Positions 7,111 through 52,077 of a stretch of 54,252 nt of DNA are shown here, piece after piece. The notes below the pieces were generated by a model. It was not told where the DNA came from and did no database searches. It saw nothing but the letters and a program-made list of their open reading frames with translations. Position 1 is the first letter of the stretch. Every line of letters begins with the position of its first letter. Both the position numbers and the translations under genes were made by a program. This DNA is from Omnitrophica bacterium GWA2_41_15 (GTDB lineage: Bacteria; Omnitrophota; Gorgyraeia; Ghiorseimicrobiales; Ghiorseimicrobiaceae), in contig CAKKQO010000004.1 of the NCBI GenBank assembly GCA_919902105.1, positions 4,180-58,431 on the forward strand. Direction: 5' to 3'.

Positions 7111-7245
7111 ATTAATTATCCTCTCAATGACGACACAATTTACAGAAACGAAGTTGATGTAAATTGTCAGTCGGAATTGATCCCGTTGAGTGTATTAAAA
7201 TTAGCGAAGAGAATTTTAATACTTTTTTCGAAACGGGACATTTTT

Positions 7246-7866
7246 TTATCTTCCATAACTCTGAAAAGGAATTGTCGGCTTTTTAAAATCCGCATCTTCT
7301 TTTATTGCTCTATCTTTGCTCTCATGTGAAATTATTTTCGCTACGTGCACTCTTACCGTAATGGTTCCCTCAAGCCCTAATATCTCCTGAATCTTATTTT
7401 TTACCATTTCCTGCAGATTACCGGTTAACTCCTGAATATTCGTCTCAGAACGCAAAATTATCCTTAAGTCCACATTGAGCTCGCCTTTTTTTCCGGCAAT
7501 AACATCAGAACGGGACTCTTTAACCTCCGGTATATTTATGGTTAGTCTTTTAATTAAATCCTCTACGGCAGAAAGGGCAATCGTTACTTGGCCTGTAGGG
7601 TTATTCCAGGCAATAGTTTTTTCTTTCTGTATTTTTCCGGTTAATAAATGCGCAAAGAAAAAAGTCAGGATTATGAGTAATGCGCCTGCCAGGCCTAAAA
7701 TTAAGCTTGAATTATAAGCATTGTTAGAGAGAAATTCTAACGCCGTAGTAATATCCTGCACTTTTAATAAATTTAAAGGCAGGGTGGACAAGACAATCAT
7801 TAAAAAGCCTAACATCGTCAGCACCGTCACATAAAAATAAACTCCTAAGGTATAAAAGAAACGCAT
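7246..7866 (-). CDS. membrane anchor protein downstream of Asp23 (AmaP-like)
   Basis: Two N-terminal TM helices plus soluble domain; immediately follows an Asp23-family gene. Confidence 0.5.
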   Translation of the reverse strand: MRFFYTLGVYFYVTVLTMLGFLMIVLSTLPLNLLKVQDITTALEFLSNNAYNSSLILGLAGALLIILTFFFAHLLTGKIQKEKTIAWNNPTGQVTIALSAVEDLIKRLTINIPEVKESRSDVIAGKKGELNVDLRIILRSETNIQELTGNLQEMVKNKIQEILGLEGTITVRVHVAKIISHESKDRAIKEDADFKKPTIPFQSYGR

Positions 7867-26572: not shown

Positions 26573-27471
26573 ATGGACGCCTGCCAAAAAGAATTTAACC
26601 GCCTTAAAAGAATAAAGATATTGGTGGCTAAAAATTTTTCTCATTTCGGGCTGAACAAAAAACAGGAAATCAAGCGCCTCATTTATGAAATCTCCAAACG
26701 CGACAACTTAAACCCGGCTAAGGTTATCCGCGGCGCTCAAACAGGGGAATTTAACAGGATAAAAGAATATCTTATAAGCCGCCGTTTTCCTTATGCATAT
26801 GCTCATCGCGAAATCTCAAAAATTTACCTGCCCAGCATCGAACTTGCGGCTCTCGACGCCTTTAATCCTCCGAAGAACAAGTTTTATCCTAAAAAAATCT
26901 TTATAGAAAGACAAGTTAAAGGCTCTTATTTAGCCAAACGTTTTAAAAACGCTTTCCCAAAGGCAGATTTTTGCCAAATTTCGACGCTAAAAGATTACCT
27001 CAAGCCAGAAAAAAGATACGACACTGTAGATTATAACGCGCGGCGTGACACGGTTTTTAATGTGCGCAAGCAGGATATCGGATAGGGTTTCATTTTGACC
27101 CGGTGTTTTATTTTCCCGCCACTAATACTTCGGCGGGATGGAAGAAAGAATACGCTCAGGTTATCGAGAACCTTTTTGCTCACGTTAAGCCGCGTTCTCT
27201 TGCCTGGATAAGTATCGACACCTTTCGCTTTAAGCCGGAATTAAAAAAGATCATTGAGGCGCGTTTTCCGCAAAATAGAATTTTAGACGAAGAACTGCTT
27301 CTCGGCTACGACAATAAATTAAGATACCCTGATAGCCTAAGATACGATATTTATAAATTCCTTATTGAAACTATGAAAAAACACGCCAAGCAATTACCAA
27401 TTTACCTCTGTATGGAAGAAAAAGCTGTCTGGCAAAGACTTAACCTACGTTTCCCATTCTATATAAGATAG
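26573..27471 (+). pseudogene. spore-photoproduct-lyase-family radical SAM gene with internal deletion of the CX3CX2C core and a frameshift
   Basis: Frame 1 ends ...YNARRDTVFNVRKQDIG* (compare B. subtilis SplB YRNAKSTLVIGVRK). Frame 2 opens at 27061 as CAQAGYRIGFHFDPVFY...GWKKEY...LAWISIDTFRFKPELKKIIEARFP (compare SplB AKAGYPLGF...EGWEEGY). About 170 aa between the two are missing. Confidence 0.65.
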
Positions 27472-28316
27472 CCCGCGATTAGGGTAAAGCTGACAAAAAG
27501 ATAGATAATTAATGTGTTGCGGATGGTGGGGATAAATTGCGTTGCCTTATCGTAGGTTTTTCTTGCTTTTAGAGCGGTGTAGACAGCGAAAGGAAAGATA
27601 AGGAAAACCAAGATAGAGAATATCGGGATTAGTTTTAGGGCAAAAGCAATTGCCAGCATAAGGAAACTAAGAAAAATCACTGCCTGATAAAGTATAATCG
27701 CGCGCTGCTTGCCTAATCTGACCACCAGGTTTTTTTTACCAACCAGCCCATCCTGATAATAATCCGGAATTTCATTAACCAACGCCAAGGCGAGTATCAA
27801 GAAACCAAAAATTAAGGAAACTAAAAATGGCCCCAGGCCGATTCGTTGCGCCTGGACATAATAACTGCCTAAAACCATTAAAGGGCCGTAGGCAAAAAAT
27901 ATGGCGAACTCACCAAAACCGCGATAAGCCAATCTTAGTGGCGGGCCGACATAGAAGCAGGCGGCGATAAATCCCAAAATGGCAAATACGGCAATGCTTA
28001 AGCCGATTTTTAGGCTAAGGTATCCGGCAATAATCCCCGCTAAAATAAAAGCTAAACACCCCAGGTAAAATATATAATCAGGGATATTTTCTTTATCCTC
28101 GAGAAAAACCCTATCCGAGCCAAGCCGGGCATCAAAATACTCATTAAACGTTTCTACGCCTACCAATGATAAGGCAATCCCGATAAATGCTACGGCAAAG
28201 TAGTAAAAATTAAATGTCTTATGCGCGGAGAAAGACATGCTTGCGCCAAGAAAAAAAGGCAGGATTCCCGCAAACAGAAAAAACCGATAGCGCAGGAGCC
28301 GAAAAAAAGAAAACAT
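27459..28316 (-). CDS. UbiA-superfamily aromatic prenyltransferase, MenA-like
   Basis: NEYFDARLGSD and DYYQDGLVGKKNLVVRLG motifs (compare E. coli MenA NDYGDAVKGSD); 8-9 TM helices. Confidence 0.75.
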   Translation of the reverse strand: MFSFFRLLRYRFFLFAGILPFFLGASMSFSAHKTFNFYYFAVAFIGIALSLVGVETFNEYFDARLGSDRVFLEDKENIPDYIFYLGCLAFILAGIIAGYLSLKIGLSIAVFAILGFIAACFYVGPPLRLAYRGFGEFAIFFAYGPLMVLGSYYVQAQRIGLGPFLVSLIFGFLILALALVNEIPDYYQDGLVGKKNLVVRLGKQRAIILYQAVIFLSFLMLAIAFALKLIPIFSILVFLIFPFAVYTALKARKTYDKATQFIPTIRNTLIIYLFVSFTLIAGYLI

Positions 28317-28322
28317 TTAAGG

Positions 28323-29312
28323 TTAGATATCTAATTCTATCCAGGTATTGGATTGGGCCAAGAGGGTATGGTCTTTGATGACTTTTTGCGTAAATTCAAG
28401 CACATCTCTCCTCTTCCAGGCCTGTTTATAGCGCTGCCAAATTTCTTTTAAAGAGTGTTTTCTTAAATCTCCGCATAGATAGGGAAGCGGTCCGATAAGT
28501 TTTACTTTGCCGTTGGGGATGATTAAGAGACTGGCCGAAGGATTATACATGCGGTATTTTAATTCTTCCACGACATCATAAGGATAATAATATACCTTCA
28601 TCTTGCCTTTATACTCTGCTTCTTTTTTCTGCAAAACATTAAAAAAATCTTCGTAATCTTTCTCGCTTGGTGCGAGTTTATCCCAATTTTTAGCGGCTCT
28701 GCCGATGCGCATAATCTTTCCGGTGTAAAAGCCGTATACGCCCAAAGAGGCGGCGAGGTCGATCATTTGGGAGGTTTCTTTTAGGTTAAATTTTGTAGGT
28801 ACAAAGACTATCTCAGTATTTATTCCTCTTTTTACCAAGCGTTTTACCGCATCTATTGCTTTCTGCCAGTCTCCTTTTATACGCATTGCTTCATGCGTTT
28901 TGGGGGTTACGCCGTCTATACTTATCTGCACAGAGCGGAAACCGAACTCTTTAAACTTGTCTGCTGTTTTTTCATCAATGAAGTGGCCGTTGGTCTCTAC
29001 TTTGAGGCTTATTCCGTTATCGGTAATTACTTTAGCCGCATCAAAGAAATACGGACAAAGCATGGGCTCGCCGCCGGAAATCGCCGCGTAAGGAATATCC
29101 ATCTCAGTAATCTGACGGCATAAATCTAAGGCTTCATCTTTGGTTAATTCATTAGGCATTTGATACCCCGCCTCTTCACAGCAGTGCAGGCAGTCTAAAT
29201 TACAGAGGGAATTTATCTGCCAGGCGATAAATAAAGGGGAAGATAAATCTTCGATGTCAACCGAAGACGGCCTTACGTCTTGCTCTAAGAGGGAAACTTC
29301 TTTTACTTTCAT
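28323..29312 (-). CDS. radical SAM enzyme of the PqqE/NirJ/MoaA class, without SPASM auxiliary-cluster cysteines
   Basis: CNLDCLHC (CX3CX2C), SGGEP, ETNG motifs; only one Cys (YLCGDL) after the core. Confidence 0.8.
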   Translation of the reverse strand: MKVKEVSLLEQDVRPSSVDIEDLSSPLFIAWQINSLCNLDCLHCCEEAGYQMPNELTKDEALDLCRQITEMDIPYAAISGGEPMLCPYFFDAAKVITDNGISLKVETNGHFIDEKTADKFKEFGFRSVQISIDGVTPKTHEAMRIKGDWQKAIDAVKRLVKRGINTEIVFVPTKFNLKETSQMIDLAASLGVYGFYTGKIMRIGRAAKNWDKLAPSEKDYEDFFNVLQKKEAEYKGKMKVYYYPYDVVEELKYRMYNPSASLLIIPNGKVKLIGPLPYLCGDLRKHSLKEIWQRYKQAWKRRDVLEFTQKVIKDHTLLAQSNTWIELDI

Positions 29313-35405: not shown

Positions 35406-36148
35406 ATAAATGCGAATAAAGCAATGGTTGCGGCAGATAAAATAATTTCATGCGCCTTAAACGGCTTATGCTTTAATACCGGAATATTACCATCATAGCC
35501 CCTTTGAATCATCGCTACAGTCAAATTCTGGTTATGTTCAAATGCTTTTAGCACCAAAGACCCTGAAAGAATGCCAAAGGATGATAATCCGCGCCGGACA
35601 TTTGAATATCCGAGGCGGTTTTTTTGGGCGTTATAGATAACCTGCGCTTCATCAGATAAGACAAAGATGTAGCGATAGGCAAACATTAGTATCTCGATAA
35701 AGCCCTTTGGCGCCTTTAGCCATGATAAGGCGGCGATAAGCTCGGTAAAAAGAGTTGTGAACCCTAAAATTGCCACGATAGAAACCGCAGCAAGGATACG
35801 GCAGGCGATGCGTAAGCCCTCATAAAGCCCTTCTGAATACCCGATTATTTTAAACCCGGCGAAATTCAGCGTGAATATAGAAGTTTCGCCGCTAAAGAAA
35901 AACTTAAGCAAAATTAAGATACCCGCGATAAATAACGGCTCGCAAAATCGCAAGAGAAAAACTTTTAGCGGCAGACGCAGGCGCAGACATATCGCGGCAG
36001 ACGCGACAAGAATGAATAACAAAAAAAAGAACCCGTTATAGCTTAAGACCATGGCAAGTAGAACAAGGGTAAAGATGAGCTTTACTCTTGCATCTAACGT
36101 GTAAATTCTGCTTTTTTCTCTTTTAAAGTGTTCAGCGAATAAGTGCAT
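35393..36148 (-). CDS. cbiQ: cobalt ECF transporter T component
   Basis: 251-aa multi-TM protein between cbiM and cbiO; AQKNRLG loop typical of CbiQ/EcfT. Confidence 0.8.
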   Translation of the reverse strand: MHLFAEHFKREKSRIYTLDARVKLIFTLVLLAMVLSYNGFFFLLFILVASAAICLRLRLPLKVFLLRFCEPLFIAGILILLKFFFSGETSIFTLNFAGFKIIGYSEGLYEGLRIACRILAAVSIVAILGFTTLFTELIAALSWLKAPKGFIEILMFAYRYIFVLSDEAQVIYNAQKNRLGYSNVRRGLSSFGILSGSLVLKAFEHNQNLTVAMIQRGYDGNIPVLKHKPFKAHEIILSAATIALFAFIWKI

Positions 36149-37149
36149 TATTTTGGTTTTTGTTCGGTTAGTTTTCGCCAGTAGTAGCCGCCGACAAATC
36201 CGCCGATTGCTCCAGCCAAGAGAAAAACAAAGAGCAAGAGGTCTCCTTGGTCGGTGTTTATCAAAGGCGCTCGCGCGGCCCTGCCATGTTCCTCGGCATA
36301 TTTTTCTACCACGGTTTCATCAACTCCCGGCCATTCCGCGGCATTTGCTAGTGAAAAACAACTTATAAAAAAAATAGAGAGAAACACAACAACAGCCTTC
36401 GTCACCTTTAAAACTTTCATTTTAATCAGTAAATCCGGCCTTTTTTTATACAAGAGCATAATCATTCCGCTGGTCATCGCGCCTTCAAGGATTCCAAGAG
36501 GCAGCTGTGTCGGTATGAAAGCAACAATAATTTTCCAAAAAAGCGGTAAAAAAGGCGCGCTTCCTTTTATGCCTGCGGTAAGTTCGACTGATGTGGCAAG
36601 ATATGTCGCCCAATCGGCAAATAGCCCAGCAAAAAACGCGGAAACTGCCAAATTTATTTTTAATAAACGTAATGCCTTGAATGTCAAAAATCCCGCGAAT
36701 GAACCTACGACACCCATAGATACTATGTCTGCTCCCCACGTGCTCAAGCCACCGTGTGCCAGGAACAATGCCTGAATCAGGAGTGCCACTGCGGTAATTA
36801 ATATGCTGATAGCCGGGCCGAGAAGTATTCCTGAAATCCCGGTTCCACAGGGATGGCTGCATGTGCCTGCTGTTGGCACAGGTATAGGCATACAGGAAAT
36901 AATAAACACAACTGCTGCCATAAGCCCAACAAGCGGCTTAAATGATATGTCTGAGTTTGAAATCTTCTTTAGCCGGTATAATCCATATGCCACAAATGGC
37001 ACAGCAATCAAAAACCACAATAGCGCCCAGTTGAAGGGTAATATGCCTTCGGAGATGTGCATCGCGCGTGCCGCGCGCGAAAATAGAAAATCGAAAGTTG
37101 AGATTAGACAAAAACAAAAAACAAATTTTAACAACTTAATTCTTTTCAT
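36148..37149 (-). CDS. cbiM: cobalt ECF transporter substrate component, CbiM fused to a CbiN-like C-terminal segment
   Basis: Signal peptide ...SRAARA followed by MHISEGILP (the metal-binding N-terminus of CbiM); C-terminal TDQGDLLLFVFLLAGAIGGFVGGYYW resembles CbiN. Confidence 0.8.
   Translation of the reverse strand: MKRIKLLKFVFCFCLISTFDFLFSRAARAMHISEGILPFNWALLWFLIAVPFVAYGLYRLKKISNSDISFKPLVGLMAAVVFIISCMPIPVPTAGTCSHPCGTGISGILLGPAISILITAVALLIQALFLAHGGLSTWGADIVSMGVVGSFAGFLTFKALRLLKINLAVSAFFAGLFADWATYLATSVELTAGIKGSAPFLPLFWKIIVAFIPTQLPLGILEGAMTSGMIMLLYKKRPDLLIKMKVLKVTKAVVVFLSIFFISCFSLANAAEWPGVDETVVEKYAEEHGRAARAPLINTDQGDLLLFVFLLAGAIGGFVGGYYWRKLTEQKPK
37079..37106. repeat. degenerate heptamer tract (GAAAATA/GAAAATC/GAAAGTT/GAGATTA) in the cbiM signal-peptide region
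   Basis: Read directly; same GAAAATA unit as at 2409-2443. Confidence 0.65.
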
Positions 37150-37786
37150 CAGATAATTTTAACAACGCATTTACAATCGCCGCGGCGACTGTGCTGCCGC
37201 CTTTTCTGCCTAACGCGGTAATGAACGGGTATTGTGTGCGCGCAAGTTCATCCTTTGACTCAACCGCCCTGACAAAACCGACTGGAACGCCGATAATAAG
37301 GGGTAAGGTGTAAGGGGTACGGGGTAAGGAAAATGCAGCTAAAAGCTTAAGTACTTTAAAAAGCGCGGTGGGGGCGTTGCCGATAGCAATGATGCCGATA
37401 TTTTTATTTTCTCTTAGCCCTATTTCTATCCCTCTCTCCGACTTCGTCTCTCTAATTTTTTCTGTCCCCTGTCTTCTGTCTTCTGTCTTCTGAAGATAGC
37501 AGATTACTCTCCCGCCCCATTTTCCAAGCAATTGCTTATTTATCCCTGCTTCTACCATACGCACGTCAACAAGGATATCTTTGCCATTCTTTATTGCTTC
37601 TATTCCTGTTTCTACTGCCTTTGGGTGGAAGCGCAGGTTTTTTGCAAAGTCAAAATCCGCGGTTGTATGGATTACCCGTTTGACAATCGGCAGTTCAATA
37701 TCGCGAAAGCTGTTTTTTCCCAGCTCTTGAGTAATTATCTTAAAGCTTTCCAGCTCGATTTCGTTCGGGGCTAAAATGTCGGACAT
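37136..37786 (-). CDS. cbiC: cobalt-precorrin-8 methylmutase
   Basis: VIHTTADFDF, GNAPTAL, GVPVGFV, GRKGGSTVAAAIVNAL. Confidence 0.9.
   Translation of the reverse strand: MSDILAPNEIELESFKIITQELGKNSFRDIELPIVKRVIHTTADFDFAKNLRFHPKAVETGIEAIKNGKDILVDVRMVEAGINKQLLGKWGGRVICYLQKTEDRRQGTEKIRETKSERGIEIGLRENKNIGIIAIGNAPTALFKVLKLLAAFSLPRTPYTLPLIIGVPVGFVRAVESKDELARTQYPFITALGRKGGSTVAAAIVNALLKLSDEKN
37300..37327. repeat. heptamer tract GGGGTAA x4 (degenerate) inside cbiC
   Basis: Read directly; encodes an extra loop (LPRTPYTLP) between GNAPTAL and GVPVGFV relative to Salmonella CbiC. Confidence 0.8.
37463..37490. repeat. heptamer tract TGTCTTC x3 perfect + 1 degenerate inside cbiC
   Basis: Read directly; encodes QKTEDRRQG. 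Confidence 0.85.
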
Positions 37787-38412
37787 TATATTGCCTCTCT
37801 TATGCGATCTATGACTATATCACATATGCGCGTATCCGGGCCTAAATTTTGAGCGTAGATAAATTTAATCCGCGGATATTTGTCCATTTCATTTTTAATT
37901 GCCTTCGGCAGATCAAAACTAACATGGTTGCCTTTAAAAAGGAAAAACGGGACAATAATTATCTTTTTGCATTTTTTAACGGCAATGTAGCGCACCACCT
38001 TAGCTAAATCCGGCTGATGAAATTGTAAATACGCGGAATAAACATCTTTTAGGCCCAATTCTTTTTTGGCGGCGCTAACAATCTTACGCATGGTGCTGTT
38101 TGCGCTTTTTAGTTTGCTTCCGTGGCTAAGGATAATCACCCCTGTTTTTTCATAGATTTTCACCGGTTTCGCCGCTTGTGGCTTATATTTATCGCGGATT
38201 AACTGAAAAATTTCGTCTACCACGCTTTTTTGATGAATCCAGTTACAATTCTGACAGGACCAAATCTCGCGTTTATCCCTCGCCTGAATAAAATTGCCAC
38301 GGCTTCTGTTTAGGCAGGGATAAAATGGGCAGTAACAGAATGTGCAGTCCTCTAACTTAACATGGCAGGGAAAATATTTACACGCCTTATTTATCCGAAA
38401 TATATTTTTCAT
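37786..38412 (-). CDS. cbiX: small CbiX-type sirohydrochlorin cobaltochelatase fused to an N-terminal Cys-rich domain
   Basis: N-terminal ~60 aa with 10 Cys (CKYFPCH...CTFCYCPFYPC...CQNC); C-terminal GVIILSHGS...IIVPFFLFKGNHV CbiX(S) core. Confidence 0.7.
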   Translation of the reverse strand: MKNIFRINKACKYFPCHVKLEDCTFCYCPFYPCLNRSRGNFIQARDKREIWSCQNCNWIHQKSVVDEIFQLIRDKYKPQAAKPVKIYEKTGVIILSHGSKLKSANSTMRKIVSAAKKELGLKDVYSAYLQFHQPDLAKVVRYIAVKKCKKIIIVPFFLFKGNHVSFDLPKAIKNEMDKYPRIKFIYAQNLGPDTRICDIVIDRIREAI

Positions 38413-38429
38413 TTTTTACCTCTTTTTTA

Positions 38430-38460
38430 ACCATGTCGACCGCGGGGGTCGACATGGTTT
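38430..38460. repeat. intergenic hairpin of the same family as 31324-31354 (cbiA/cbiX spacer)
   Basis: AACCATGTCGACC gcggg GGTCGACATGGTT, perfect 13-bp stem. Confidence 0.85.
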
Positions 38461-38522
38461 TTAGGGGCTAAAATTTTTGCAAGCAGTGATAAAGTTTTTG
38501 GGCCACAAAAGTATTTGTGGCA

Positions 38523-39932
38523 TTACGCAAAATCTAAACGCCAGTTGGCAGATTTTGCGCTACGAAATTTATAATTACGGCATGCTAATATAAAATTTTT
38601 CACAAATTTTATATTAGCCGCGAAATGTAGGTGGGCGTAACCGGCTAATACATTTTTTTTAATTAAGCCATCATAGAAAATGTTACCATTTTTTTCACAT
38701 TGATACGCCCAGTTATTACGCGGCGTCTCAATAAAATGCGACCAATGAAACATATGCGCCCTGATCTTATCGCCCATTTTAGTCAAAACGTTATCGCGCA
38801 ATGCCGTAAGTGTTGCATAACCAAGCCCTGCACGTTTTTTGCCCATCTTTATTTTAGCATTAAAAATCCCTGTAAATGGAAATTTCCGCCCTTTTAAATC
38901 AGTTATTTCTTTGGCCAAATACATTAAGCCGCCGCATTCGGCATATACCGGCATTCCGGCTTTTGCTTTTAGGCGTATATCGCGCATTAATTTTTGATTC
39001 CGCGATAATTTTTGCGCGAAAATTTCGGGAAATCCACCCCCGATATAAATGCCATCAATATTATCCGGCAGCTTTTTATCTGTTAGCGGACTAAAATCCA
39101 CTAAACGCGCGCCAAATTGGCGCAAAATATCAAAATTATCCTGATAATAAAAGTTAAACGCCGCGTCATATGCCACGGCAATAGTTGTTTTCCACGGCAA
39201 AGGATTTTTTGTAAAAATTTTCGCTTTAAAAGGCGCTATCGGTTTAGCCGCGCGCGCGATCGCGATAATTTTTGCGATATCAATATTTTCTTCGGCTTTT
39301 TTCGCTAAAATCCGGCAGAACTTATTAAACGCCTTCTTTTCATAAACCGGAAGGAGCCCAAGATGCCGCTCATCTAACTTTAATTTTTCATCATGCGGCA
39401 GAAATCCCAAAACAGGGATTTTTGCCTGTTCTTCAATGCTCTTTCGCGCAGCTTGGTAGTGCGTTTGGCTCGCAATATTATTTAAAATTACCCCTATCAG
39501 GTTAATTTTCCGGTCAAATTTCTGATACCCTAAGGCCAATGCCGCCAAACTTCTTGAAGATGAACGAGCGTTTATCGCTAAAATTACCGGGGCATTAAGG
39601 ATCTTAGCTAACTCTGCTGTTGAGCCGGCCTCACTATCGCCGGCACCGTCATATAAGCCCATTACGCCTTCAATTAAGGAAATATCCGCTTTTTCTGCCC
39701 GGTGCGCGAATAGTTCCTTTACGGCATCTTCGCAGAGCATCCAACTATCAAGGTTTGCGCAATGCCTTCTGCTTGCGTAACTATGATAGGCACAGTCAAT
39801 ATAATCCGGGCCTGCCTTAAACGGTTGGACTTTTAATCCTCTTTTTGCTAGCGCCAAAGTCAACCCTAGAGTTAGCGTAGTTTTACCCGAACCGCTGTTT
39901 GCGCCTGCTAATATAACTCTTGGGTAACTCAT
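38523..39932 (-). CDS. cbiA: cobyrinate a,c-diamide synthase
   Basis: ILAGANSGSGKTTLTLGL, C-terminal glutamine amidotransferase (YAECGGLMY). Confidence 0.9.
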   Translation of the reverse strand: MSYPRVILAGANSGSGKTTLTLGLTLALAKRGLKVQPFKAGPDYIDCAYHSYASRRHCANLDSWMLCEDAVKELFAHRAEKADISLIEGVMGLYDGAGDSEAGSTAELAKILNAPVILAINARSSSRSLAALALGYQKFDRKINLIGVILNNIASQTHYQAARKSIEEQAKIPVLGFLPHDEKLKLDERHLGLLPVYEKKAFNKFCRILAKKAEENIDIAKIIAIARAAKPIAPFKAKIFTKNPLPWKTTIAVAYDAAFNFYYQDNFDILRQFGARLVDFSPLTDKKLPDNIDGIYIGGGFPEIFAQKLSRNQKLMRDIRLKAKAGMPVYAECGGLMYLAKEITDLKGRKFPFTGIFNAKIKMGKKRAGLGYATLTALRDNVLTKMGDKIRAHMFHWSHFIETPRNNWAYQCEKNGNIFYDGLIKKNVLAGYAHLHFAANIKFVKNFILACRNYKFRSAKSANWRLDFA

Positions 39933-40888
39933 TTTTTTATCAGCCAGAATATGCTGGCACCAATAGCTAATGCAATAAATGATACTATATACATAATCCT
40001 ATTTGCTGTTTTTATGGCCTCGCTGGTCAAAGAATTTTTATCTCTCCCCATAAAAGGCACACAGACCGCTATCCCTTGATAATAATTTATTCCACCCAGC
40101 CGCACTCCCAACAATTCCGCCATAGCGCTCTCTGGAATACGCGAACTTTGGCCGATAATAAACTCTTTTTTTAAAATGACATTTTTAAGCACCGCTTTCG
40201 CGTTTTGGCGTAAGCATATGCCTGTGATAAAAAATAAAACGCCGCTTATTCGCGCCGGGATATAGTTTAACAACTCATCAAGCTTTGCCGATGCCCAGCC
40301 AAAGTCCTTATATTTTTCGTTGCGGCTACCTAGCATCGAATCCAAAGCATTCACGGCCTTATAGGCAACGCAGAGCGGCGCTCCCCCTAAAAAAGCGAAA
40401 AATAAAGGCGAAATAACGCCGTCCACCGTGCTTTCCGCTATGGTTTCAACAGTTGCGCGGGTAATTTCTTTTTCATTAAGGTTATTAGTATCCCTTCCCA
40501 CTATCATTGAGAGATTGCCGCGCGCAGAGCCAATGTCTTTTTTAGAAAGCGCCCAATGAACACGCATACTCTCATCCCGCAGGTCTTTTATGGATAAACA
40601 TACATAGATTAAGAATACCGAAACGAATGCACCGGCTAAATAATTAATCCGATAAAAAAGATTTATAGCGCCAAAACTTACCACGTAGCTTGCGCCCACA
40701 ACAAGTAAAACAACCAACTGTCCGGCTTCCCGCTTATTTTCAAAATGATAAAACATTTTTTCAAAAAAACTGATTAAGCATCCCATCAGGCGCATTGGAT
40801 GCCAGCGCCACTGGGGATCGCCGAATAGCAAATCCATTATAAAGGCAGAGATAATTATAACCGGTTGATTCATCATCGCGTTAATCAT
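39929..40888 (-). CDS. cbiB: adenosylcobinamide-phosphate synthase
   Basis: CobD/CbiB membrane protein pattern (GDPQWRWHPMRLMG, IVGRDT, TVESTVDGV). Confidence 0.9.
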   Translation of the reverse strand: MINAMMNQPVIIISAFIMDLLFGDPQWRWHPMRLMGCLISFFEKMFYHFENKREAGQLVVLLVVGASYVVSFGAINLFYRINYLAGAFVSVFLIYVCLSIKDLRDESMRVHWALSKKDIGSARGNLSMIVGRDTNNLNEKEITRATVETIAESTVDGVISPLFFAFLGGAPLCVAYKAVNALDSMLGSRNEKYKDFGWASAKLDELLNYIPARISGVLFFITGICLRQNAKAVLKNVILKKEFIIGQSSRIPESAMAELLGVRLGGINYYQGIAVCVPFMGRDKNSLTSEAIKTANRIMYIVSFIALAIGASIFWLIKK

Positions 40889-40893
40889 TCAAT

Positions 40894-40951
40894 GGTTGCG
40901 TAGCTAGAAACGTCTTACGCTAAACGCATAACGATTCGAGTTACGCAACCG
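40894..40951. repeat. 58-nt hairpin-forming repeat, copy A (after the SPASM gene)
   Basis: GGTTGCGTAGCTAGAAACGTC-[15 nt]-AACGATTCGAGTTACGCAACCG; its ends pair (GGTTGCGTAGCT / AGTTACGCAACC). Confidence 0.85.
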
Positions 40952-40963
40952 ATAAACGTACAA

Positions 40964-42274
40964 CTATGCTCGATATTCATACCTAAGATTATTCATCAAT
41001 TCCTTGCGCAAAATATATTTTTCCTTGCCTTGGGCTATCAGTTTAAAGGCGTGGCGGATTATCGCCTTATAAAAATTGCAGAATACTGATTTTTGGCGAA
41101 ATTTCCCCAGCGAATATAATTCTGCCGGACAAGGCGAGCCGCAGATATTTCGGAATTCGCAAAGATTACATTCTTCTACATTTTCCACAAACCTGCCGCG
41201 TACTTTTTTAAATGGCGCTGAATCCAACGCCTGCTTTATGCCGCCTTTGAAGATGTTGCCGCCAGAAAAGTCCTTTAACCCGATAAATTCGCCGCAGGGA
41301 ATCATTTCTCCTTTAGCGGTAATGGTAAAAAAACACCTTCCGCCTCCGCAAGGCGAGATATCACACATCAGCCGGCGGGCAAACGGTGAAACAATACCCA
41401 GAAGAATATTAGCAAAGTTGGCGATAATTATCTGCCTGCCTGTCTTCTGTGTAAGCGCAATCGCTGTATCCACTGCTTTTATAAACTCTTTAGTTAGCGC
41501 ATTTTCGTCCGGTTTTAATTTTCGCGAGTATTTCTGCGTAAAACGCATGGGGTTTAACAACAGGCAGGGAACTTTTTTGTTATGCATGAATTTTACGATT
41601 TTAGAAAGATTCGCAACGTTATATTTAGTAAGCGTCGTAATCACGTTTAGTCCGGCATAGCCGTCAAACCATTCCAGCGCCTTTATGACTTTATTGAAAT
41701 TACCGCTCCTTAAACGGTTATTTATTTTCCGGCTATACGAATCAAGCGACAGCCCTACGCCAACTCGGTTTTTAATCAAAAACTCCACGTCTTCTTTTTC
41801 CAGGAGAATGCCGTTTGTCTGCAGACCGAATAAAAATTTATCTTTGAACTTTTCTATTGCGGAAAATACAACGTCTTTCACTAATAAGGGTTCACTGGCA
41901 TGGAAAACGATTACTAATTTTTTACGCCGTAGCCCGATATATTGATAAATTTTATTTAAAATAAGTTCGAGTTCATTTTTTGTCATTGAGCGGCCGTCTC
42001 TACGTATCTTAGGCGGCACATAACAATACGGGCAATTGGCGTTGCATCTATCAGTAGGGTCTATATATACGGCGGACAGCTCTACGCCAAAACGGAAATC
42101 GCGCATTTCTCTATCTAAGCCGGCACCTATCCGGTTATAAGACGATAAAACATTCCTTGGAATTATGGTTGAGCCATTATTGGATTTGGGCAATATTGAC
42201 CAAAAAACATTATCGGCATCAAGGGCAATTTTACGATTATTTGTATTTTCGAATATATTTAAGCCGGTTTGCAT
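40964..42274 (-). CDS. radical SAM / SPASM-domain peptide-maturase-like enzyme
   Basis: CNANCPYC (CX3CX2C); C-terminal CDISPCGGGRC...IPCGEF...CNLCEFRNICGSPCPAE...FCNFY; start set at the ATG at 42274 (GGAG upstream), the ORF track starts at the GTG at 42298. Confidence 0.8.
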   Translation of the reverse strand: MQTGLNIFENTNNRKIALDADNVFWSILPKSNNGSTIIPRNVLSSYNRIGAGLDREMRDFRFGVELSAVYIDPTDRCNANCPYCYVPPKIRRDGRSMTKNELELILNKIYQYIGLRRKKLVIVFHASEPLLVKDVVFSAIEKFKDKFLFGLQTNGILLEKEDVEFLIKNRVGVGLSLDSYSRKINNRLRSGNFNKVIKALEWFDGYAGLNVITTLTKYNVANLSKIVKFMHNKKVPCLLLNPMRFTQKYSRKLKPDENALTKEFIKAVDTAIALTQKTGRQIIIANFANILLGIVSPFARRLMCDISPCGGGRCFFTITAKGEMIPCGEFIGLKDFSGGNIFKGGIKQALDSAPFKKVRGRFVENVEECNLCEFRNICGSPCPAELYSLGKFRQKSVFCNFYKAIIRHAFKLIAQGKEKYILRKELMNNLRYEYRA

Positions 42275-42312
42275 ATTTGCTCCGTGATTAACCAACACGT
42301 TGAACGTAATAC

Positions 42313-42370
42313 GGTTGCGTAGCTGGAAACGTCAAGCGTTTAACGTAAAACGATTCGAGTTACGCAACCG
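42313..42370. repeat. 58-nt hairpin-forming repeat, copy B (between the 51-aa ORF and the SPASM gene)
   Basis: Identical to copy A over 20/21 left and 22/22 right positions; the central 15 nt differ. Confidence 0.85.
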
Positions 42371-42389
42371 CAATACGATAGTCGGATTT

Positions 42390-42545
42390 TTATACAGGCG
42401 ATTCGTTCTTCGGCGCGTCTCCATACATCACGAAATGCGATAGGCCGTTGCCGGTTTTAGCGCATTTTAAACGGTAAGCAATACTACCGTCATTGCTCTT
42501 TTTGCAGTTACTTTGCTTACGAGCTTTTTTTAATTTAGCCGCCAT
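42390..42545 (-). CDS. 51-aa ORF, candidate precursor peptide for the adjacent SPASM enzyme
   Basis: Not in ORF track. AGGAGGG 4 nt upstream of ATG; MAAKLKKARKQSNCKKSNDGSIAYRLKCAKTGNGLSHFVMYGDAPKNESPV. Confidence 0.5.
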   Translation of the reverse strand: MAAKLKKARKQSNCKKSNDGSIAYRLKCAKTGNGLSHFVMYGDAPKNESPV

Positions 42546-42568
42546 ATACCCTCCTTTCTAGTTAATAT

Positions 42569-44089
42569 TTATTTTAATAAGCCGTACAAATAACCAAGAT
42601 CAATATTTTTTTTGACTAAATCCGCTAATTTATCAAATTCTTTTTCACGGTTGAAGTCCGAAAATACTAAATCCCTATGAAGACAATTCTTTCCCTTCGC
42701 GGCGTTGATTAAAAACCTTCTTCTGAAATCTTTATTGTCAAAAATTCCGTGGATATACGTGCCCCAGATACGGTTGTCAGGGCTGATGCATCCGTCTTTC
42801 AACGAAACACGCGCGTTATTCCGCCTTATGACTTTAAAAGCCGGCATATGTTTTTTAATTATAGTTTCGCCATGATGAATTTCGTAACCAGATACATTCG
42901 TATCCCATATCAAATCTCTTCCTTTTACTTGGGATGTTTTCTTGGTTTTTGACAGGCGCGTCTCCATATCAAATAACCCCAAGCCGTCTATCTGCGCGCG
43001 TGAAGATTCTATTCGATATGGGTCATTTATCGTTTTGCCGAGCATCTGAAACCCACCGCAAATGCCGATTAAAATAGTTGTGAGTTGTGGGTTGCGAGTT
43101 GTGAGTATCTTTTCAGCTAAGCCAGATAGCTGCAGCCATTTTAAATCGCCAATGGTGTTTTTAGTACCAGGGAGAATAATGACGTCTGAGCCATCTAATT
43201 CTTGCGGCGTTTTTACATAACGTAAATTTACCATTGGTTCATTTTTTAAGGCATCGAAATCCGTAAAGTTGGAGATATGGGGTAGTTTGATTACGGCAAT
43301 ATTTATTCGATTCTTTTGTATTGTGTATTGTGTATTATGTATTATGTTATCATCGAGTGACACCGAATCTTCTTCGCCTATTTTTATATTATTGTAATAG
43401 GGAATAACGGCTAAAACTTTCTTGCCGGTTTTTTTCTCTAAAAACCTCAAGCCCCCTTGCAGCAATCTTTTATCCCCGCGGAATTTATTAATAATAAAAC
43501 CTTTAATCCTATCGCGCTCATTTTCATCCAGAAGCTCTAAGGTTCCGATAATAGAAGCAAATACGCCACCCTTATCTATATCGCCGACTAAAATTACTTT
43601 AGCATCGGCATATTCCGCCATTTTCATATTTACAAAATCATGTTGCTTTAGGTTTATCTCTGCCGGGCTTCCCGCGCCCTCAATAACAATAATCCTATAG
43701 TTTTGCGCTAGATTTTCATATGACTGATAAACCTTTTTGAGCAGTGATTTTTTGCGCCGCGCGTACTCAACAGCACTCATACTGCCTATTGATACACCCT
43801 GTACAATTACTTGCGCGCGCCTATCCGCGCTGGGTTTAAGCAGTACGGGGTTCATATGTACGTTTGGAGCAATCCCCGCGGCATAAGCCTGTTCTGCCTG
43901 GGCTCTGCCGATTTCTCCGCCGTCAGACGTAACATATGAATTAAGCGCCATATTCTGCGCCTTAAACGGAGCAACCTTAAAACCATCTTGCTTAAATATG
44001 CGGCACAAGGCGGCAGTAATTATGCTTTTACCTACCCCAGAACCTGTCCCGCATATTTGTATTGCTTTTGTCATTATAGTTGCAGACAT
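42569..44089 (-). CDS. cobQ: cobyric acid synthase
   Basis: ICGTGSGVGKSIITAALCR, FKAQNMALNS, C-terminal GATase (ICGGFQMLG). Confidence 0.9.
   Translation of the reverse strand: MSATIMTKAIQICGTGSGVGKSIITAALCRIFKQDGFKVAPFKAQNMALNSYVTSDGGEIGRAQAEQAYAAGIAPNVHMNPVLLKPSADRRAQVIVQGVSIGSMSAVEYARRKKSLLKKVYQSYENLAQNYRIIVIEGAGSPAEINLKQHDFVNMKMAEYADAKVILVGDIDKGGVFASIIGTLELLDENERDRIKGFIINKFRGDKRLLQGGLRFLEKKTGKKVLAVIPYYNNIKIGEEDSVSLDDNIIHNTQYTIQKNRINIAVIKLPHISNFTDFDALKNEPMVNLRYVKTPQELDGSDVIILPGTKNTIGDLKWLQLSGLAEKILTTRNPQLTTILIGICGGFQMLGKTINDPYRIESSRAQIDGLGLFDMETRLSKTKKTSQVKGRDLIWDTNVSGYEIHHGETIIKKHMPAFKVIRRNNARVSLKDGCISPDNRIWGTYIHGIFDNKDFRRRFLINAAKGKNCLHRDLVFSDFNREKEFDKLADLVKKNIDLGYLYGLLK
43077..43104. 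repeat. heptamer tract GTTGTGA x4 (degenerate) inside cobQ
   Basis: Read directly; encodes TTRNPQLTT. Confidence 0.8.
43317..43351. repeat. heptamer tract TGTATTG/TGTATTA x4 + 1 degenerate inside cobQ
   Basis: Read directly; encodes IIHNTQYTIQ. Confidence 0.85.
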
Positions 44090-45224: not shown

Positions 45225-45296
45225 ATATACTAGTTATGCTTTATTTTTGTTTAATATGGAAAATATTCTGTTTTGCGATTATCCCTATTGTTGACG

Positions 45297-45332
45297 GTCG
45301 CCACATCGGCGACCTATCTCTAACTGGGTAAA
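45297..45332. repeat. GC hairpin + conserved 18-mer TATCTCTAACTGGGTAAA (second copy of the module at 12424-12459)
   Basis: GGTCGCC-acatc-GGCGACC then an 18-mer matching the reverse complement of 12424-12441 at 17/18. Confidence 0.6.
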
Positions 45333-45334
45333 GA

Positions 45335-48357: not shown

Positions 48358-48406
48358 TCGCACCCTAATTTAAGCTATCGCCCTTCCGCGCGGAAATAAT
48401 CCCAAA

Positions 48407-48550
48407 TATAGGCAGGTCTTCTGGCTACCGGATCACTCTAATTGCCAAGCCTTCCCGGCCCGAAACTTCTGGTCAGTGGCATCTTTGGCTTTCGTCCCCG
48501 GATACAGCGGCGGGACCGCTCCTGCTTCCACAGGATTCCCTTTACCTATA
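48407..48550 (-). promoter_or_regulatory. cobalamin riboswitch aptamer
   Basis: Minus-sense UAUAGGUAAAGGGAAUCCUGUGGAAGCAGGAGCGGUCCCGCCGCUGUA...GCCACUG...GGGAAGGC...AGCCAGAAGACCUGCCUAUA: conserved GGGAA, GCCACUG and AGCCAG-N-ACCUGCC (B12 box) blocks, P1 UAUAGG/CCUAUA. Confidence 0.85.
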
Positions 48551-48566
48551 ACTAATTGTTCTTATA

Positions 48567-48620: not shown

Positions 48621-49265
48621 TTATTCGCGATGATAGCCGTATTTCCCCAGTAAAGGCACAAAGGCGCAGCCGCAGATTTGTTCTTCTTTTAAGCCATCTT
48701 CCTTTTTCTCTATTAAGGTCAGTACCTGGGAAAAGCTCCCTCCCAAAGGAAGAACTAACTTGCCGCCTTCACTTAATTGTTTAACTAATGGCGGCGGGAC
48801 ATTGTCAGATGCGGCAGTTACAATGATTGCCTGATAAGGAGAAAATTCTTCCCAGCCTAAAGTGCCGTCACCTAACTTAGTAGATATATTGATGATGCCT
48901 AAATCCTTAAAAATTTCCTTTGCCCTTGCAAGTAATACCTCTATGCGCTCTACAGTATAAACATGGGCAGATAATCTTGCCAAAATTGCCGTCTGATAAC
49001 CTGAGCCCGTACCGATTTCTAACACTTTATCTTCGGCGTTCAACCTCAAACTTTCAGTCATCAGGGCAACAATATAAGGTTGAGAAATGGTCTGTCCTTG
49101 CCCTATGCTTAAAGGGCAATCTTCGTAACTATCACTCTCTAAATCCTGGGGGACAAATTTATGCCGCGGTACTTCCCTTAAAGCGCAGATTACTCTTTCA
49201 TCTCTTATCCCGCGGTGAACAATTTGGCGCTCTACCATTAATTGCCTTAATCTATCGAAATCCAT
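48621..49265 (-). CDS. pcm: protein-L-isoaspartate O-methyltransferase
   Basis: VPRHKFVP, ISQPYIVALM, VLEIGTGSGYQTAILA. Confidence 0.9.
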   Translation of the reverse strand: MDFDRLRQLMVERQIVHRGIRDERVICALREVPRHKFVPQDLESDSYEDCPLSIGQGQTISQPYIVALMTESLRLNAEDKVLEIGTGSGYQTAILARLSAHVYTVERIEVLLARAKEIFKDLGIINISTKLGDGTLGWEEFSPYQAIIVTAASDNVPPPLVKQLSEGGKLVLPLGGSFSQVLTLIEKKEDGLKEEQICGCAFVPLLGKYGYHRE

Positions 49266-50004
49266 GCTGTTCTTTTTTTGTAAAAAGCAATCTCAGATAA
49301 GTTTTGATAAAACGCAGGGTGTCTAACACCGGGTGGATTTGGCTCTTTTCGCCTTGATATATAGTTTCAATAGGAAGAGATTCAATCTTATATCCTTTTT
49401 TTGCCGCCTCAATTAATATTTCGGATTCCATATCGTATCTGGCAGCCAAAAGGGTAATGTTTTCTAGCACTATTTTCTGGATAAGACGGAAACCGCATTG
49501 TGTATCGGGGATATTTTGGCCTGAGGCGCGGGAAATCAACCAAGACATAAACCTATTGGTAATAATCCGGGCGAGCGGCATATTTTCGGTATTACGCATC
49601 CGGTTGCCCACCACCATATCGGCATTGGTCTTCTTGCGCATCTGGATAAAATCTTTTATAGACTCCGGGTTATGCTGACCGTCAGCATCCAAGGTAACGA
49701 TAGTCTGATATTGGGATTTTAAGGCATATTCAAAGCCGCGCCGAAGAGCGGACCCCTTACCTTGATTCTTCTCGCTTTTTAATACCACTGCCCCTTTTGC
49801 CTGGGCCATATCCGCAGTGGCATCGCTAGAGCCGTCATCAACTACCACTACAGTTAACCCGATGTTTTTTATACGCTCTATCAGCGAGGCAATAACCTTT
49901 TCTTCATTATAAGCTGGAATAATTACGCAAGTATCATTCATTTTCGAGATTAATCGCAGGCATTCATATCCACCGGCTCCCAGAATCTTCTGAACATCAA
50001 CCAT
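49252..50004 (-). CDS. family 2 glycosyltransferase (polyprenyl-phosphate sugar synthase-like)
   Basis: VIIPAYNEE, VVVDDGSSD, LDADGQH; start may be the ATG at 49941. Confidence 0.8.
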   Translation of the reverse strand: MVDVQKILGAGGYECLRLISKMNDTCVIIPAYNEEKVIASLIERIKNIGLTVVVVDDGSSDATADMAQAKGAVVLKSEKNQGKGSALRRGFEYALKSQYQTIVTLDADGQHNPESIKDFIQMRKKTNADMVVGNRMRNTENMPLARIITNRFMSWLISRASGQNIPDTQCGFRLIQKIVLENITLLAARYDMESEILIEAAKKGYKIESLPIETIYQGEKSQIHPVLDTLRFIKTYLRLLFTKKEQHGFR

Positions 50005-50828
50005 TGCTCAGGGCAAAGCCTAATATATTTTTCCAATATACTGATGTATTTCTTGGTAAGCTCTCTTATATCTTTTTCTTCATCGCCGCTGGGTGTGATC
50101 TCTACCGGGCCTTCATATTTAAACTTAAACCTGCCTTTTTTTTCTCTTAACATTATGCCTACTAACAGAGAAGCGTTAGTTTTCAGGGAAAATGCCGCAG
50201 GGCCCTTGGGTATAATCGTAGGCTTACCAAAGAAATCTATAGAGATACCAGCTTGGGTAAAATCCCGGTCGCCTACTAAAGCCAGCATTTTGTTATCCTT
50301 TAATGCATATATGCATCTAAATGCGGCATTTCCCAGAGGGATAACTCCAAGGCCCTTACGCTCTCTCTGATTAGTGAAGAAGTCGTTGATGCGAATATTA
50401 CGATGCGTAAGCGCAACGCAGACTATAGGGTATCCAAGAATCGCCATCGTAATACCGGCCAATTCCCAATTACCGATATGCGCAGTAACGACAATTACGC
50501 CGTTGCCCTTACTAAACGCTTTATCTACTATATCTAACCCCTCGATGGAAACTCTCTCTTTAATATAGTTTTTATCTATACGTTCAAAGCGGAAAAAATC
50601 TATTAGATATTTAGCAAAATTCCGAAAAACCTCCTTGGTATAAACTTTTATTAACTTATCGTCTGCCCCGGGTAAAACAAACTTAAGATTATCCCTTACG
50701 GCAGCTCTATCAACAGCCGAAAATAAACGATGTAAGTCTGCTAAAAAAACTGCTAACCCATAAGAAAGCCATAACGGAAAAATTACTGCCAGTTTTTCTC
50801 CTATTCGGTATAGAATAAAATTAAGCAT
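49950..50828 (-). CDS. LpxL/HtrB-family lysophospholipid / lipid A acyltransferase
   Basis: VVTAHIGNWELAG (HX4E-type motif of PF03279-like acyltransferases). Confidence 0.7.
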   Translation of the reverse strand: MLNFILYRIGEKLAVIFPLWLSYGLAVFLADLHRLFSAVDRAAVRDNLKFVLPGADDKLIKVYTKEVFRNFAKYLIDFFRFERIDKNYIKERVSIEGLDIVDKAFSKGNGVIVVTAHIGNWELAGITMAILGYPIVCVALTHRNIRINDFFTNQRERKGLGVIPLGNAAFRCIYALKDNKMLALVGDRDFTQAGISIDFFGKPTIIPKGPAAFSLKTNASLLVGIMLREKKGRFKFKYEGPVEITPSGDEEKDIRELTKKYISILEKYIRLCPEQWLMFRRFWEPVDMNACD

Positions 50829-51930
50829 TTTTTAAGATGAGGTCAGCGATGTCAAAAGCGGATTTTGGCTTGGCGATATATTTTAAGTTTTGCTGTATTA
50901 TAGCATATTTCTCTCTATCAGAAATTAAATTTTCCACTATTACCCCGACATCTTCGGCATTTTTTGCCCGAAAAGCAGAATTGTGCTTAAGCAGGTATTT
51001 TGTATTGTTTTCTTCTTGGCCCGGTATAGGATTAACGATAACAGGTATAACTCCTTTGGCTAAGGCCTCAGAAATTGTTAATCCGCCGGGCTTCGTAACT
51101 ATTATGGAAGAGACTTCCATTAATTCATCCACATTATCGGCGTAACTTAATAAAAAGTGTTTATTGCAAATTGGCATTTTTCTTAATTCATTATAAAGCT
51201 TGGTATTTGTCCCGGTTACTATAACTAATTGCAACTTAACGCCGATGCCATCCAAAGACTCGACTATTTTCTTTATCGGCCCTAAACCCTGTCCGCCGCC
51301 CATTACCAAGATTACCGGAAGAGTTACGTCCAGTCCGAGTCTTTGGGCTATTTCAACCTTATCTAACGATGTAGAGAACTTTGGATTTATGGGAATGCCA
51401 AGTAATTTAATTTTTTTGTCTTCCACGCCTAACTCAATCAGCCTATTTTTTGATTCTTCATTAGCCACGCTATAATAATCCACATTTTGATACAGCCAAT
51501 AAGAATGCGGGAGGAAATCGGTAACTATTGCTATAAGTGGCGTATTTAAACGATAGATCTTCTTAAAATCGGCAAACATCCCGCAAGGAAATGCCTGCGT
51601 ACAGGCAATAACATCCGGCTTAAATTCATCAAAGAGTTTTTTAATCTTTTTGGCATTAAATTTATGGATAAGGTTTTTGGCGTATTTAGTGCTTTTTACT
51701 ATTTTTGGGTTATCGTAAAGATGCTCCCAAATCTGAGGTATCCTTTTAATTATTGCCATATATAAACGATTAACGAATCGTTCTGAGTAAGGATTGGTGT
51801 AGTTAAAAAGGTTGGTGCTTAATACCGAGGCAGATGGTTCAATTATTTTTAACGCTTTTTCTACTGCATCTGCGGCAGCCTTATGTCCCGAGACATCGGA
51901 AATATGTGCGAGCAATACGCTTTTAGGCAT
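50821..51930 (-). CDS. MGDG-synthase-like diacylglycerol glycosyltransferase (GT28)
   Basis: N-terminal MGDG_synth-like region plus C-terminal GT-B (GGGQGLGP, TKPGGLTISEA); start set at the internal MPKSVLL. Confidence 0.7.
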   Translation of the reverse strand: MPKSVLLAHISDVSGHKAAADAVEKALKIIEPSASVLSTNLFNYTNPYSERFVNRLYMAIIKRIPQIWEHLYDNPKIVKSTKYAKNLIHKFNAKKIKKLFDEFKPDVIACTQAFPCGMFADFKKIYRLNTPLIAIVTDFLPHSYWLYQNVDYYSVANEESKNRLIELGVEDKKIKLLGIPINPKFSTSLDKVEIAQRLGLDVTLPVILVMGGGQGLGPIKKIVESLDGIGVKLQLVIVTGTNTKLYNELRKMPICNKHFLLSYADNVDELMEVSSIIVTKPGGLTISEALAKGVIPVIVNPIPGQEENNTKYLLKHNSAFRAKNAEDVGVIVENLISDREKYAIIQQNLKYIAKPKSAFDIADLILKNA

Positions 51931-51963
51931 AGAAAATATGATAACACAATTAATAAATAGAGT

Positions 51964-52077
51964 AAATAGGGACACATCCTATTTTTATCTTTAGAGGGAT
52001 TTATTATCTGGGGATTTGGATAGCCGAAAAAAAATAACAGATTTTCAAGGAAATAAAAATAGGATGTGTCCCTATTT
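51964..52077. repeat. 23-bp perfect inverted repeat separated by 68 nt
   Basis: AAATAGGGACACATCCTATTTTT (51964-51986) / AAAAATAGGATGTGTCCCTATTT (52055-52077). Confidence 0.9.

Follow-up and report, generated by a model that had tools for sequence, protein, structure and literature searches.

The window analysed here is a stretch of 54,252 nucleotides (nt) from contig CAKKQO010000004.1 of Omnitrophica bacterium GWA2_41_15 (assembly GCA_919902105.1). On its minus strand two genes, an open reading frame (ORF) of 51 amino acids (aa) and then a radical S-adenosylmethionine (SAM)/SPASM gene, are located between cobQ and cbiB. In an earlier reading of the sequence alone (below, the original prediction), they were described as an interruption of the cobQ-cbiB junction and as a peptide precursor with its maturase. 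The interruption was confirmed by the profile matches of both neighbours (Table 1), and the two genes probably represent cbpA and cbpB, a peptide-maturase pair, because the enzyme falls into a curated family, the ORF accompanies it at 74 of the 80 loci compared, and this ORF is under strong purifying selection; the same three findings support the precursor/maturase arrangement proposed originally.

The CbpB enzyme and its upstream peptide

The reading frame of cbpB is open from a GTG codon at 42298 (444 aa), and an ATG codon at 42274 (436 aa) has GGAG 5 nt upstream. The ATG seems to be the likelier start because of this GGAG and because a product of 436 aa matches the database copy P0001. The radical SAM protein of about this size, its CNANCPYC motif and its full set of SPASM cysteines were present as described in the original prediction. 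The radical SAM motif (CX3CX2C) corresponds to C85/C89/C92 in the 444-aa numbering and is invariant, while the SPASM set comprises C312, C317, C322, C335, C377, C380, C386, C390 and C407, invariant in an alignment of 19 homologues (C322 nearly so). The Pfam Radical_SAM and SPASM domains were both found above their cut-offs (26.3 versus 21.5 bits for SPASM).

Among the NCBIfam hidden Markov models (HMMs), the protein matched TIGR04163 ("peptide-modifying radical SAM enzyme CbpB", rSAM_cobopep) with 507.1 bits against a cut-off of 375, over model positions 9-427 of 428. The next-best models are all for peptide maturases: PapB (106.8 bits), YhhB (100.7), DynA (99) and HxsB (94). The scores stayed below the cut-offs for the sactipeptide and ranthipeptide maturases (PapB, cut-off 340; SCIFF/CteB, 80.1 versus 425; StsB, 55.3 versus 625), for the cyclophane synthases (YhhB, cut-off 445; GrrM, 73.4 versus 310; AmcB, 63.9 versus 425; FxsB, 60.1 versus 370) and for the anaerobic sulfatase-maturating enzyme (anSME; 92.6 versus 349.45). 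Judged by its sequence, the cbpB product is an enzyme of the CbpB family, a family of peptide maturases. This subfamily assignment had been suggested as a check in the original prediction, and it places the protein among neither the tetrapyrrole nor the sulfatase maturases. Database homologues with 57-83% identity, mostly from metagenome-assembled genomes (MAGs) of Candidatus Omnitrophota, Nitrospirota and Hydrogenedentota, have already been named CbpB by NCBI.

The radical SAM core begins at about residue 75. It is preceded by an N-terminal extension with invariant D27, N30, F32, W33, Y54 and F68-R69-F70, which occupies the same position as about 96 residues in front of the radical SAM core of CteB. 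AlphaFold2 (AF2) predicts three strands and one helix for this domain, with a predicted local distance difference test score (pLDDT) of about 60. Nothing meaningful was matched in Pfam or among the PDB sequences by either the N-terminal domain or the peptide. The PDB sequences closest to the whole enzyme are CteB (5wgg, E = 9.5e-23), ChlB (E = 5e-21) and anSME. When the AF2 model, which is mediocre, was searched with Foldseek, anSME came first (E = 3e-14, TM 0.58-0.68), followed by CteB, ChlB, TigE, SkfB and SuiB. All these neighbours are peptide- or protein-modifying enzymes.

Since SPASM enzymes also include tetrapyrrole-modifying members, CbpB could instead act on a corrinoid or tetrapyrrole like AhbC, AhbD or NirJ, and the ORF would then be either unrelated or a partner that is not the substrate (a carrier or chaperone, for example). 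The version with an unrelated ORF had been offered as the alternative in the original prediction. It is not supported by the family searches, in which NirJ2 (53.7 bits) and AhbD (50.6 bits) were far from their cut-offs of 500 each and the best models outside CbpB were all peptide maturases, or by the structural matches.

The peptide itself was found exactly at the place and with the sequence given in the original prediction. It is composed of a Lys-rich variable tail (residues 1 to about 20) and a near-invariant core (residues 22-46, IAYRLKCAKTGNGLSHFVMYGDAPK) with the motif YRLKCAKTxNGLSHFVMYGD. Two Tyr are present, one more than previously counted, and of the two Cys only C28 is conserved, C14 lying in the variable tail. 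Twelve residues (K27, C28, T31, N33, G34, L35, H37, F38, M40, Y41, G42 and D43) are invariant over 74 peptides, and only C28, G34, L35 and H37 over all 21 clusters formed at 50% identity. In total, a database search revealed 707 homologues of 42-90 aa, labelled "hypothetical protein" in GenBank. In the AF2 prediction the tail is disordered and is followed by a beta-hairpin with strands 23-30 and 36-44 and a turn at T-G-N-G-L (pLDDT 79-90 over residues 21-40). The core contains the aromatic-X-X triads YRL and HFV.

Residues 22-39 of the peptide align with positions 2-19 of the 25 positions of TIGR04164 (CbpA, cobo_pep), and matches to this model were found in 31 of 45 relatives at E ≤ 1 (best E = 5.5e-7). 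The similarity is specific, although it is below the threshold. Since the peptide scores under the cut-off, its relatives match weakly and GenBank labels them as hypothetical, the curated model under-covers the clade from Omnitrophota, Nitrospirota and Planctomycetota.

In the window and three relatives whose CbpB proteins are 80-83% identical, residues 20-51 of the peptide are the same, and in codons 21-51 of these four genes there are 20 variable columns, all of them synonymous (19 third positions and one first position of Leu; the codon-level and locus-wide statistics were worked out by hand from alignments). Because every variable core site is synonymous, the comparison indicates that cbpA is translated and is under strong purifying selection. 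It might be supposed that so short an ORF, with homologues called only "hypothetical protein" by NCBI, is untranslated and that the conserved stretch acts as an RNA or as a regulatory element for cbpB. Apart from the synonymous sites, this is contradicted by the strong and conserved Shine-Dalgarno sequence (AAAGGAG in loci L081-L083), by the persistence of the amino-acid motif across phyla at low DNA identity and by the lack of an Rfam match, and this explanation is effectively refuted.

Distribution of the pair in cobalamin gene clusters

A genome scan revealed CbpB relatives in at least 596 species genomes, and 80 loci were retained for comparison. With the 51-aa ORF as the query, tblastn (E ≤ 1e-5) detected a match in 72 of them, immediately upstream of cbpB and in the same orientation. 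Two further loci from Planctomycetia (L079, 5809-5940; L080, 5783-5914) carry a divergent copy, the shorter variant ...VSYRLKC(D/K)RTANGLSHYVPAEKKALV, which brings the total to 74. These variants of 43 aa keep YRLKCxRTANGLSHYV and have no MYGD, and on sequence grounds they would narrow the essential part of CbpA to Cys...GL-x-His. In three loci (L005, L056 and L057) no recognisable peptide ORF was present within about 300-450 nt upstream of cbpB, which may be either an orphan maturase gene or one whose peptide is encoded elsewhere; the remaining three have little or no sequence upstream of cbpB. The paired loci come from Omnitrophota, Nitrospirota, Planctomycetota, Hydrogenedentota, Firestonebacteria and one Bacillota MAG. 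Besides, a gene of 51-53 aa upstream of cbpB was called by independent gene callers in seven further contigs (L081-L087). The original prediction had named two outcomes contrary to it, an ORF that is not conserved beside homologous SPASM genes and an enzyme that clusters with tetrapyrrole or sulfatase maturases, and neither occurred.

The pair is located among cob, cbi or btu genes in all the loci that were inspected in detail, and the slot varies. It lies between cobQ and cbiB in the window, L001, L002 and L081-L083; between cbiB and cbiA in L004, L006, L086 and L087; between cobU and cobT in L085; in front of cobT in L020, L074 and L075; after cbiQ/cbiO or before cbiD in the Nitrospirota loci, L062 and L063; and within an uptake/salvage cluster (BtuFCD, BtuR, CobU, CobT) in L084. 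No link to early or late steps of B12 synthesis was concluded from these positions, L084 and L085 being near late/salvage genes and L062 and L063 near cbiD and ring genes. Locus L085 (GCA_021733565.1) shares with the window the upstream genes for a monogalactosyldiacylglycerol synthase, a lipid A acyltransferase and a family 2 glycosyltransferase, as well as the order of the cob genes (L085 8001-9332 compared with 49252-51975 in the window). Because it is collinear with the window and yet carries the pair between cobU and cobT, cbpA-cbpB moves as a unit within collinear cob clusters.

These data also bear on the action of CbpB on a corrinoid. The pair is always within cob/cbi/btu clusters and at three loci no peptide gene adjoins cbpB, as would be expected in that case; on the other hand, the peptide is co-conserved in 74 of the 80 loci and moves with the enzyme. 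Taken together with the family and structural matches, this makes a corrinoid or tetrapyrrole substrate improbable. Its version with an unrelated ORF is excluded because the peptide is co-conserved with cbpB, while a peptide that is a partner and not a substrate is possible.

We also considered an exported antimicrobial or signalling product, a sactipeptide or ranthipeptide residing in the cob operon by chance. The gene order, precursor then maturase, is the classic one for peptides that are made on the ribosome and modified after translation (RiPPs), the nearest characterised relatives of the enzyme are PapB and CteB, and CbpA is cationic. Against this, (i) in the loci inspected, L081-L087 included, the pair occurs with no exporter or other transporter and with no gene for a leader peptidase or for immunity; (ii) across phyla it is the core that is near-identical and the N-terminal "leader" that varies, whereas antibiotic RiPPs show the opposite pattern; and (iii) the placement in riboswitch-controlled cob clusters is systematic. 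This explanation is therefore very improbable, and the reading as a CbpA/CbpB pair with an intracellular role is followed below.

It should be mentioned that the Nitrospirota-type clusters contain other genes of interest. A gene for a Dph6-like ATP pyrophosphatase (PF01902) adjoins cbiB in two such cob/btu clusters, and cbpAB of L084 is bordered by an Asn-synthase-like gene and by another, small radical SAM gene (coordinates of these extra genes: 6101-7739 and 9352-10071 in L084; 14795-15466 in L085). They are possible further cobamide-linked genes, as yet uncharacterised.

Organization of the operon and its spacers

The partner peptide and cobalamin context that define the CbpB family were both found in the window, where the pair has cobQ and cbiB as neighbours and a B12 riboswitch stands at the head of the gene run (Table 1). 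The run after the riboswitch is cobC-cobU-cobT-cobS-cobD-cobQ-cbpA-cbpB-cbiB-cbiA-cbiX-cbiC-cbiM-cbiQ-cbiO-cbiD-cbiE-cbiL-cbiF-cbiG-cbiH. The distance from the cobQ stop to the cbpA start is 23 nt, and 115 nt separate the end of cbpA from the ATG of cbpB.

Table 1. Coordinates of cbpA, cbpB and associated features in the window
Feature	Coordinates	Strand	Basis or remark
cobalamin riboswitch, head of the same-strand gene run	48394..48564	-	RF00174, 94 bits
cobQ (cobyric acid synthase), upstream neighbour	42569..44089	-	HMM, 638 bits
Shine-Dalgarno sequence of cbpA, AGGAGGG	42549..42555	-	3 nt before ATG (4 nt if the core is AGGAGG)
cbpA, 51-aa precursor-like peptide	42390..42545	-	ORF and sequence
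hairpin in the cbpA-cbpB spacer, long, imperfect, without U-tract	42305..42377	-	inverted repeat, folding
cbpB, radical SAM/SPASM peptide maturase	40964..42274	-	436 aa from ATG; TIGR04163
second copy of the hairpin, in the cbpB-cbiB spacer	40894..40950	-	part of 93-nt direct repeat
cbiB (adenosylcobinamide-phosphate synthase), downstream neighbour	39929..40888	-	TIGR00380, 203 bits

The cbpB gene is flanked by a 93-nt direct repeat (40866-40958 and 42285-42377, minus strand; 76% identity), of which there are only two copies in the window. Each copy consists of a long imperfect hairpin with stems GGTTGCGTA...TACGCAACC and about 28 nt reaching the next gene start. The z-scores of the two hairpins are -4.7 and -4.8, the minimum free energy of the copy in the cbpA-cbpB spacer (z -4.7) being -37.6 kcal/mol. 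The second copy, in the cbpB-cbiB spacer, is missing in the relatives L001, L082 and L083 and is lineage-specific. An origin of the repeat as an insertion scar was ruled out, because it flanks cbpB only and not the cbpA-cbpB unit and because close relatives lack the second copy.

The cbpA-cbpB spacer formed a strong hairpin in all eight loci folded, and its sequence in the seven others is unrelated to that of the window. For the spacer hairpins no Rfam match was detected even at E ≤ 1, there is no terminator with a U-tract, and promoter-like sites are at chance level. Other spacers of the operon also fold strongly: the cbiA-cbiX spacer (38413-38522, minus strand) contains two hairpins (z -6.5) and the cobS-cobD spacer (45225-45334, minus strand) a GC-rich 7-bp stem (z -2.3). 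This operon appears to have structured spacers as a general trait.

Three more features of the gene run were observed. First, the CbiX-type chelatase (37786-38412, minus strand) carries a Cys-rich "zf-like" domain (PF04071) fused to it at the N-terminus, and the same fusion is present in the relatives L081, L082, L086 and L087. Second, the CbiM domain spans only residues 31-240 of the 333-aa cbiM ORF (36148-37149, minus strand); since the C-terminal part of this ORF matches as a separate segment in other loci, it is probably a CbiM-CbiN fusion. Third, a gap of about 530 nt beyond cbiH is followed by a 329-aa radical SAM gene and a gene for a UbiA-family prenyltransferase (27459-29312, minus strand), which probably form a separate quinone- or heme-related unit.

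Proposed role of CbpA/CbpB and comparison with known systems

We infer that cbpA and cbpB are co-transcribed with the cob/cbi operon and thus respond to B12, so that the two proteins would be made when cobamide is scarce. CbpB would grip CbpA in part through its conserved N-terminal domain of about 70 aa, cleave SAM at the CX3CX2C cluster to form a 5'-deoxyadenosyl radical, and take a hydrogen from the beta-hairpin core of the peptide. Using its two auxiliary clusters, it would then close an intramolecular cross-link in the hairpin. As the cross-link we tentatively prefer a thioether between the invariant Cys28 and some residue of the opposite strand, because of the sactipeptide-like logic of the hairpin and the CteB and PapB neighbours; a cyclophane or another link that involves either the invariant His37 or the YRL or HFV triads, consistent with the ChlB and YhhB neighbours, is the next option and is somewhat less likely still. 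A PapB-like thioether between Cys28 and Asp43 was down-weighted as unlikely, since the Planctomycetia variant has no MYGD and D43 is not invariant over the whole family.

The product is most likely an intracellular modified mini-protein serving the synthesis, salvage or handling of cobamides and not an antibiotic, because no protease, exporter or immunity gene occurs with the pair and because the mature part, and not the leader, is conserved across phyla. That anaerobes have in the modified hairpin a dedicated component of cobamide biosynthesis or salvage which has so far gone unrecognised is a more doubtful matter, and we put it forward as a speculative suggestion. One possibility is that the invariant Cys and His of the cross-linked mini-protein handle cobalt or a corrinoid, or that it escorts intermediates between CobQ, CbiB, CobS and CobT.

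Several points weigh against the reading as a peptide-maturase pair. The peptide matches TIGR04164 with 21.2 bits (E = 1.5e-4) against a cut-off of 35, and a single conserved Cys is atypical of sactipeptides and ranthipeptides. The N-terminal extension, put at about 75 aa in the original prediction, proved to be real with about 70 aa; as to its suggested nature as a fused peptide-recognition domain, a Pfam search with residues 1-75 gave no match even at E ≤ 10 and no signal of PqqD or of a RiPP recognition element (RRE). The AF2 model of CbpB has a pLDDT of 64.5, and the three loci with cbpB and no peptide ORF upstream belong here as well. A RiPP-style attenuation by the spacer hairpin, controlling the precursor:maturase stoichiometry, was not counted as specific evidence, since folds of equal or nearly equal strength occur in two other spacers of the operon. 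Finally, a full-text literature search found no experiment or paper on CbpA/CbpB, and the substrate, chemistry and role given above are all inferred.

According to another explanation, CbpA is a sacrificial scaffold, and CbpB begins the conversion of one residue, or two, of the peptide to a small molecule for cobamide synthesis, for example a ligand or linker precursor, in the manner of pyrroloquinoline quinone (PQQ) or mycofactocin. In PqqA and MftA, too, the C-terminal core is conserved and not the leader; the clade studied here has an invariant Cys, His, Tyr and Asp, the cob context is strict, and the Dph6-like, Asn-synthase-like and small radical SAM genes lie near in some Nitrospirota clusters. 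However, no peptidase or tailoring gene is consistently linked, and cobQ and cbiB enclose no other gene than the pair in the window. In addition, the approximately 25 conserved residues are far above the need of a two-residue precursor, and the Planctomycetia variant can dispense with Y41, G42 and D43. We therefore regard a scaffold as improbable and retain the modified mini-protein.

The novelty implied by the original prediction was overstated: the pair is already catalogued as CbpA/CbpB and recurs in the B12 clusters of hundreds of anaerobes, and that of the window is an ordinary member of a curated, experimentally uncharacterised family. Likewise, the statement that the enzyme is not a recognised cob/cbi gene holds for the canonical pathway, whereas NCBIfam models exist that are named for this operon context. 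The interest of the pair lies elsewhere. Although the anaerobic route to B12 is considered essentially complete, a RiPP-like peptide and its radical SAM maturase are retained in the cob clusters of at least 596 species genomes, which belong to Omnitrophota, Nitrospirota, Planctomycetota and other phyla. The near-frozen core across phyla, together with the B12 riboswitch in the window, suggests a conserved function inside the cell that is connected with cobamides, and not an antibiotic. If a peptide factor does act in the cobamide pathway, the textbook anaerobic B12 pathway would be incomplete in several phyla, and finding the job of CbpA/CbpB would add both a new radical SAM reaction and a new kind of player in the biosynthesis of cofactors. 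As regards annotation, the peptide is under-called by the curated CbpA model in this large clade, and its genes are labelled "hypothetical" at present.

Comparison with known systems revealed partial similarities to four groups. With PqqA/PqqE and MftA/MftC the pair has in common a small peptide with a conserved C-terminal part, a SPASM enzyme and a metabolic context; it differs from them in that no RRE protein (PqqD/MftB), peptidase or further tailoring enzyme is linked and that about 25 residues are conserved, not two. The top Foldseek match is anSME, with which the twin auxiliary clusters are shared. Unlike the substrates of anSME, CbpA has C-A-K-T-G and not the sulfatase motif C/S-x-P/A-x-R, and anSME itself has no N-terminal extension. 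The three-residue cyclophane synthases (ChlB, YhhB, GrrM/OscB), which form triceptides, link triads of the kind of YRL and HFV in CbpA; ChlB, a multiple cyclophane synthase, is the second-best PDB match, and YhhB scored 101 bits. The cut-offs of all these families were missed, however, and the triads of CbpA lie within a long invariant hairpin and not in repeated short motifs. The thioether-forming systems CteB/SCIFF and PapB have in common with CbpB the radical SAM core, the full SPASM domain and an additional N-terminal domain in the same position, CteB being the best PDB sequence match and PapB the best HMM other than CbpB (107 bits). They are set apart by scores far under their cut-offs (425 and 340, respectively), by the one conserved Cys and the lack of Cys-X3-Asp repeats in CbpA, and by cob genes in place of a RiPP cluster.

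The closest correspondence is to the CbpB/CbpA families themselves (TIGR04163/TIGR04164). The small ORF agrees with CbpA as a short upstream peptide with a conserved core, whereas its HMM score is below the cut-off of TIGR04164. The enzyme passes the equivalog cut-off of TIGR04163, and the peptide gene directly upstream, the cobalamin operon and the GenBank name CbpB are common to the window and the curated family.

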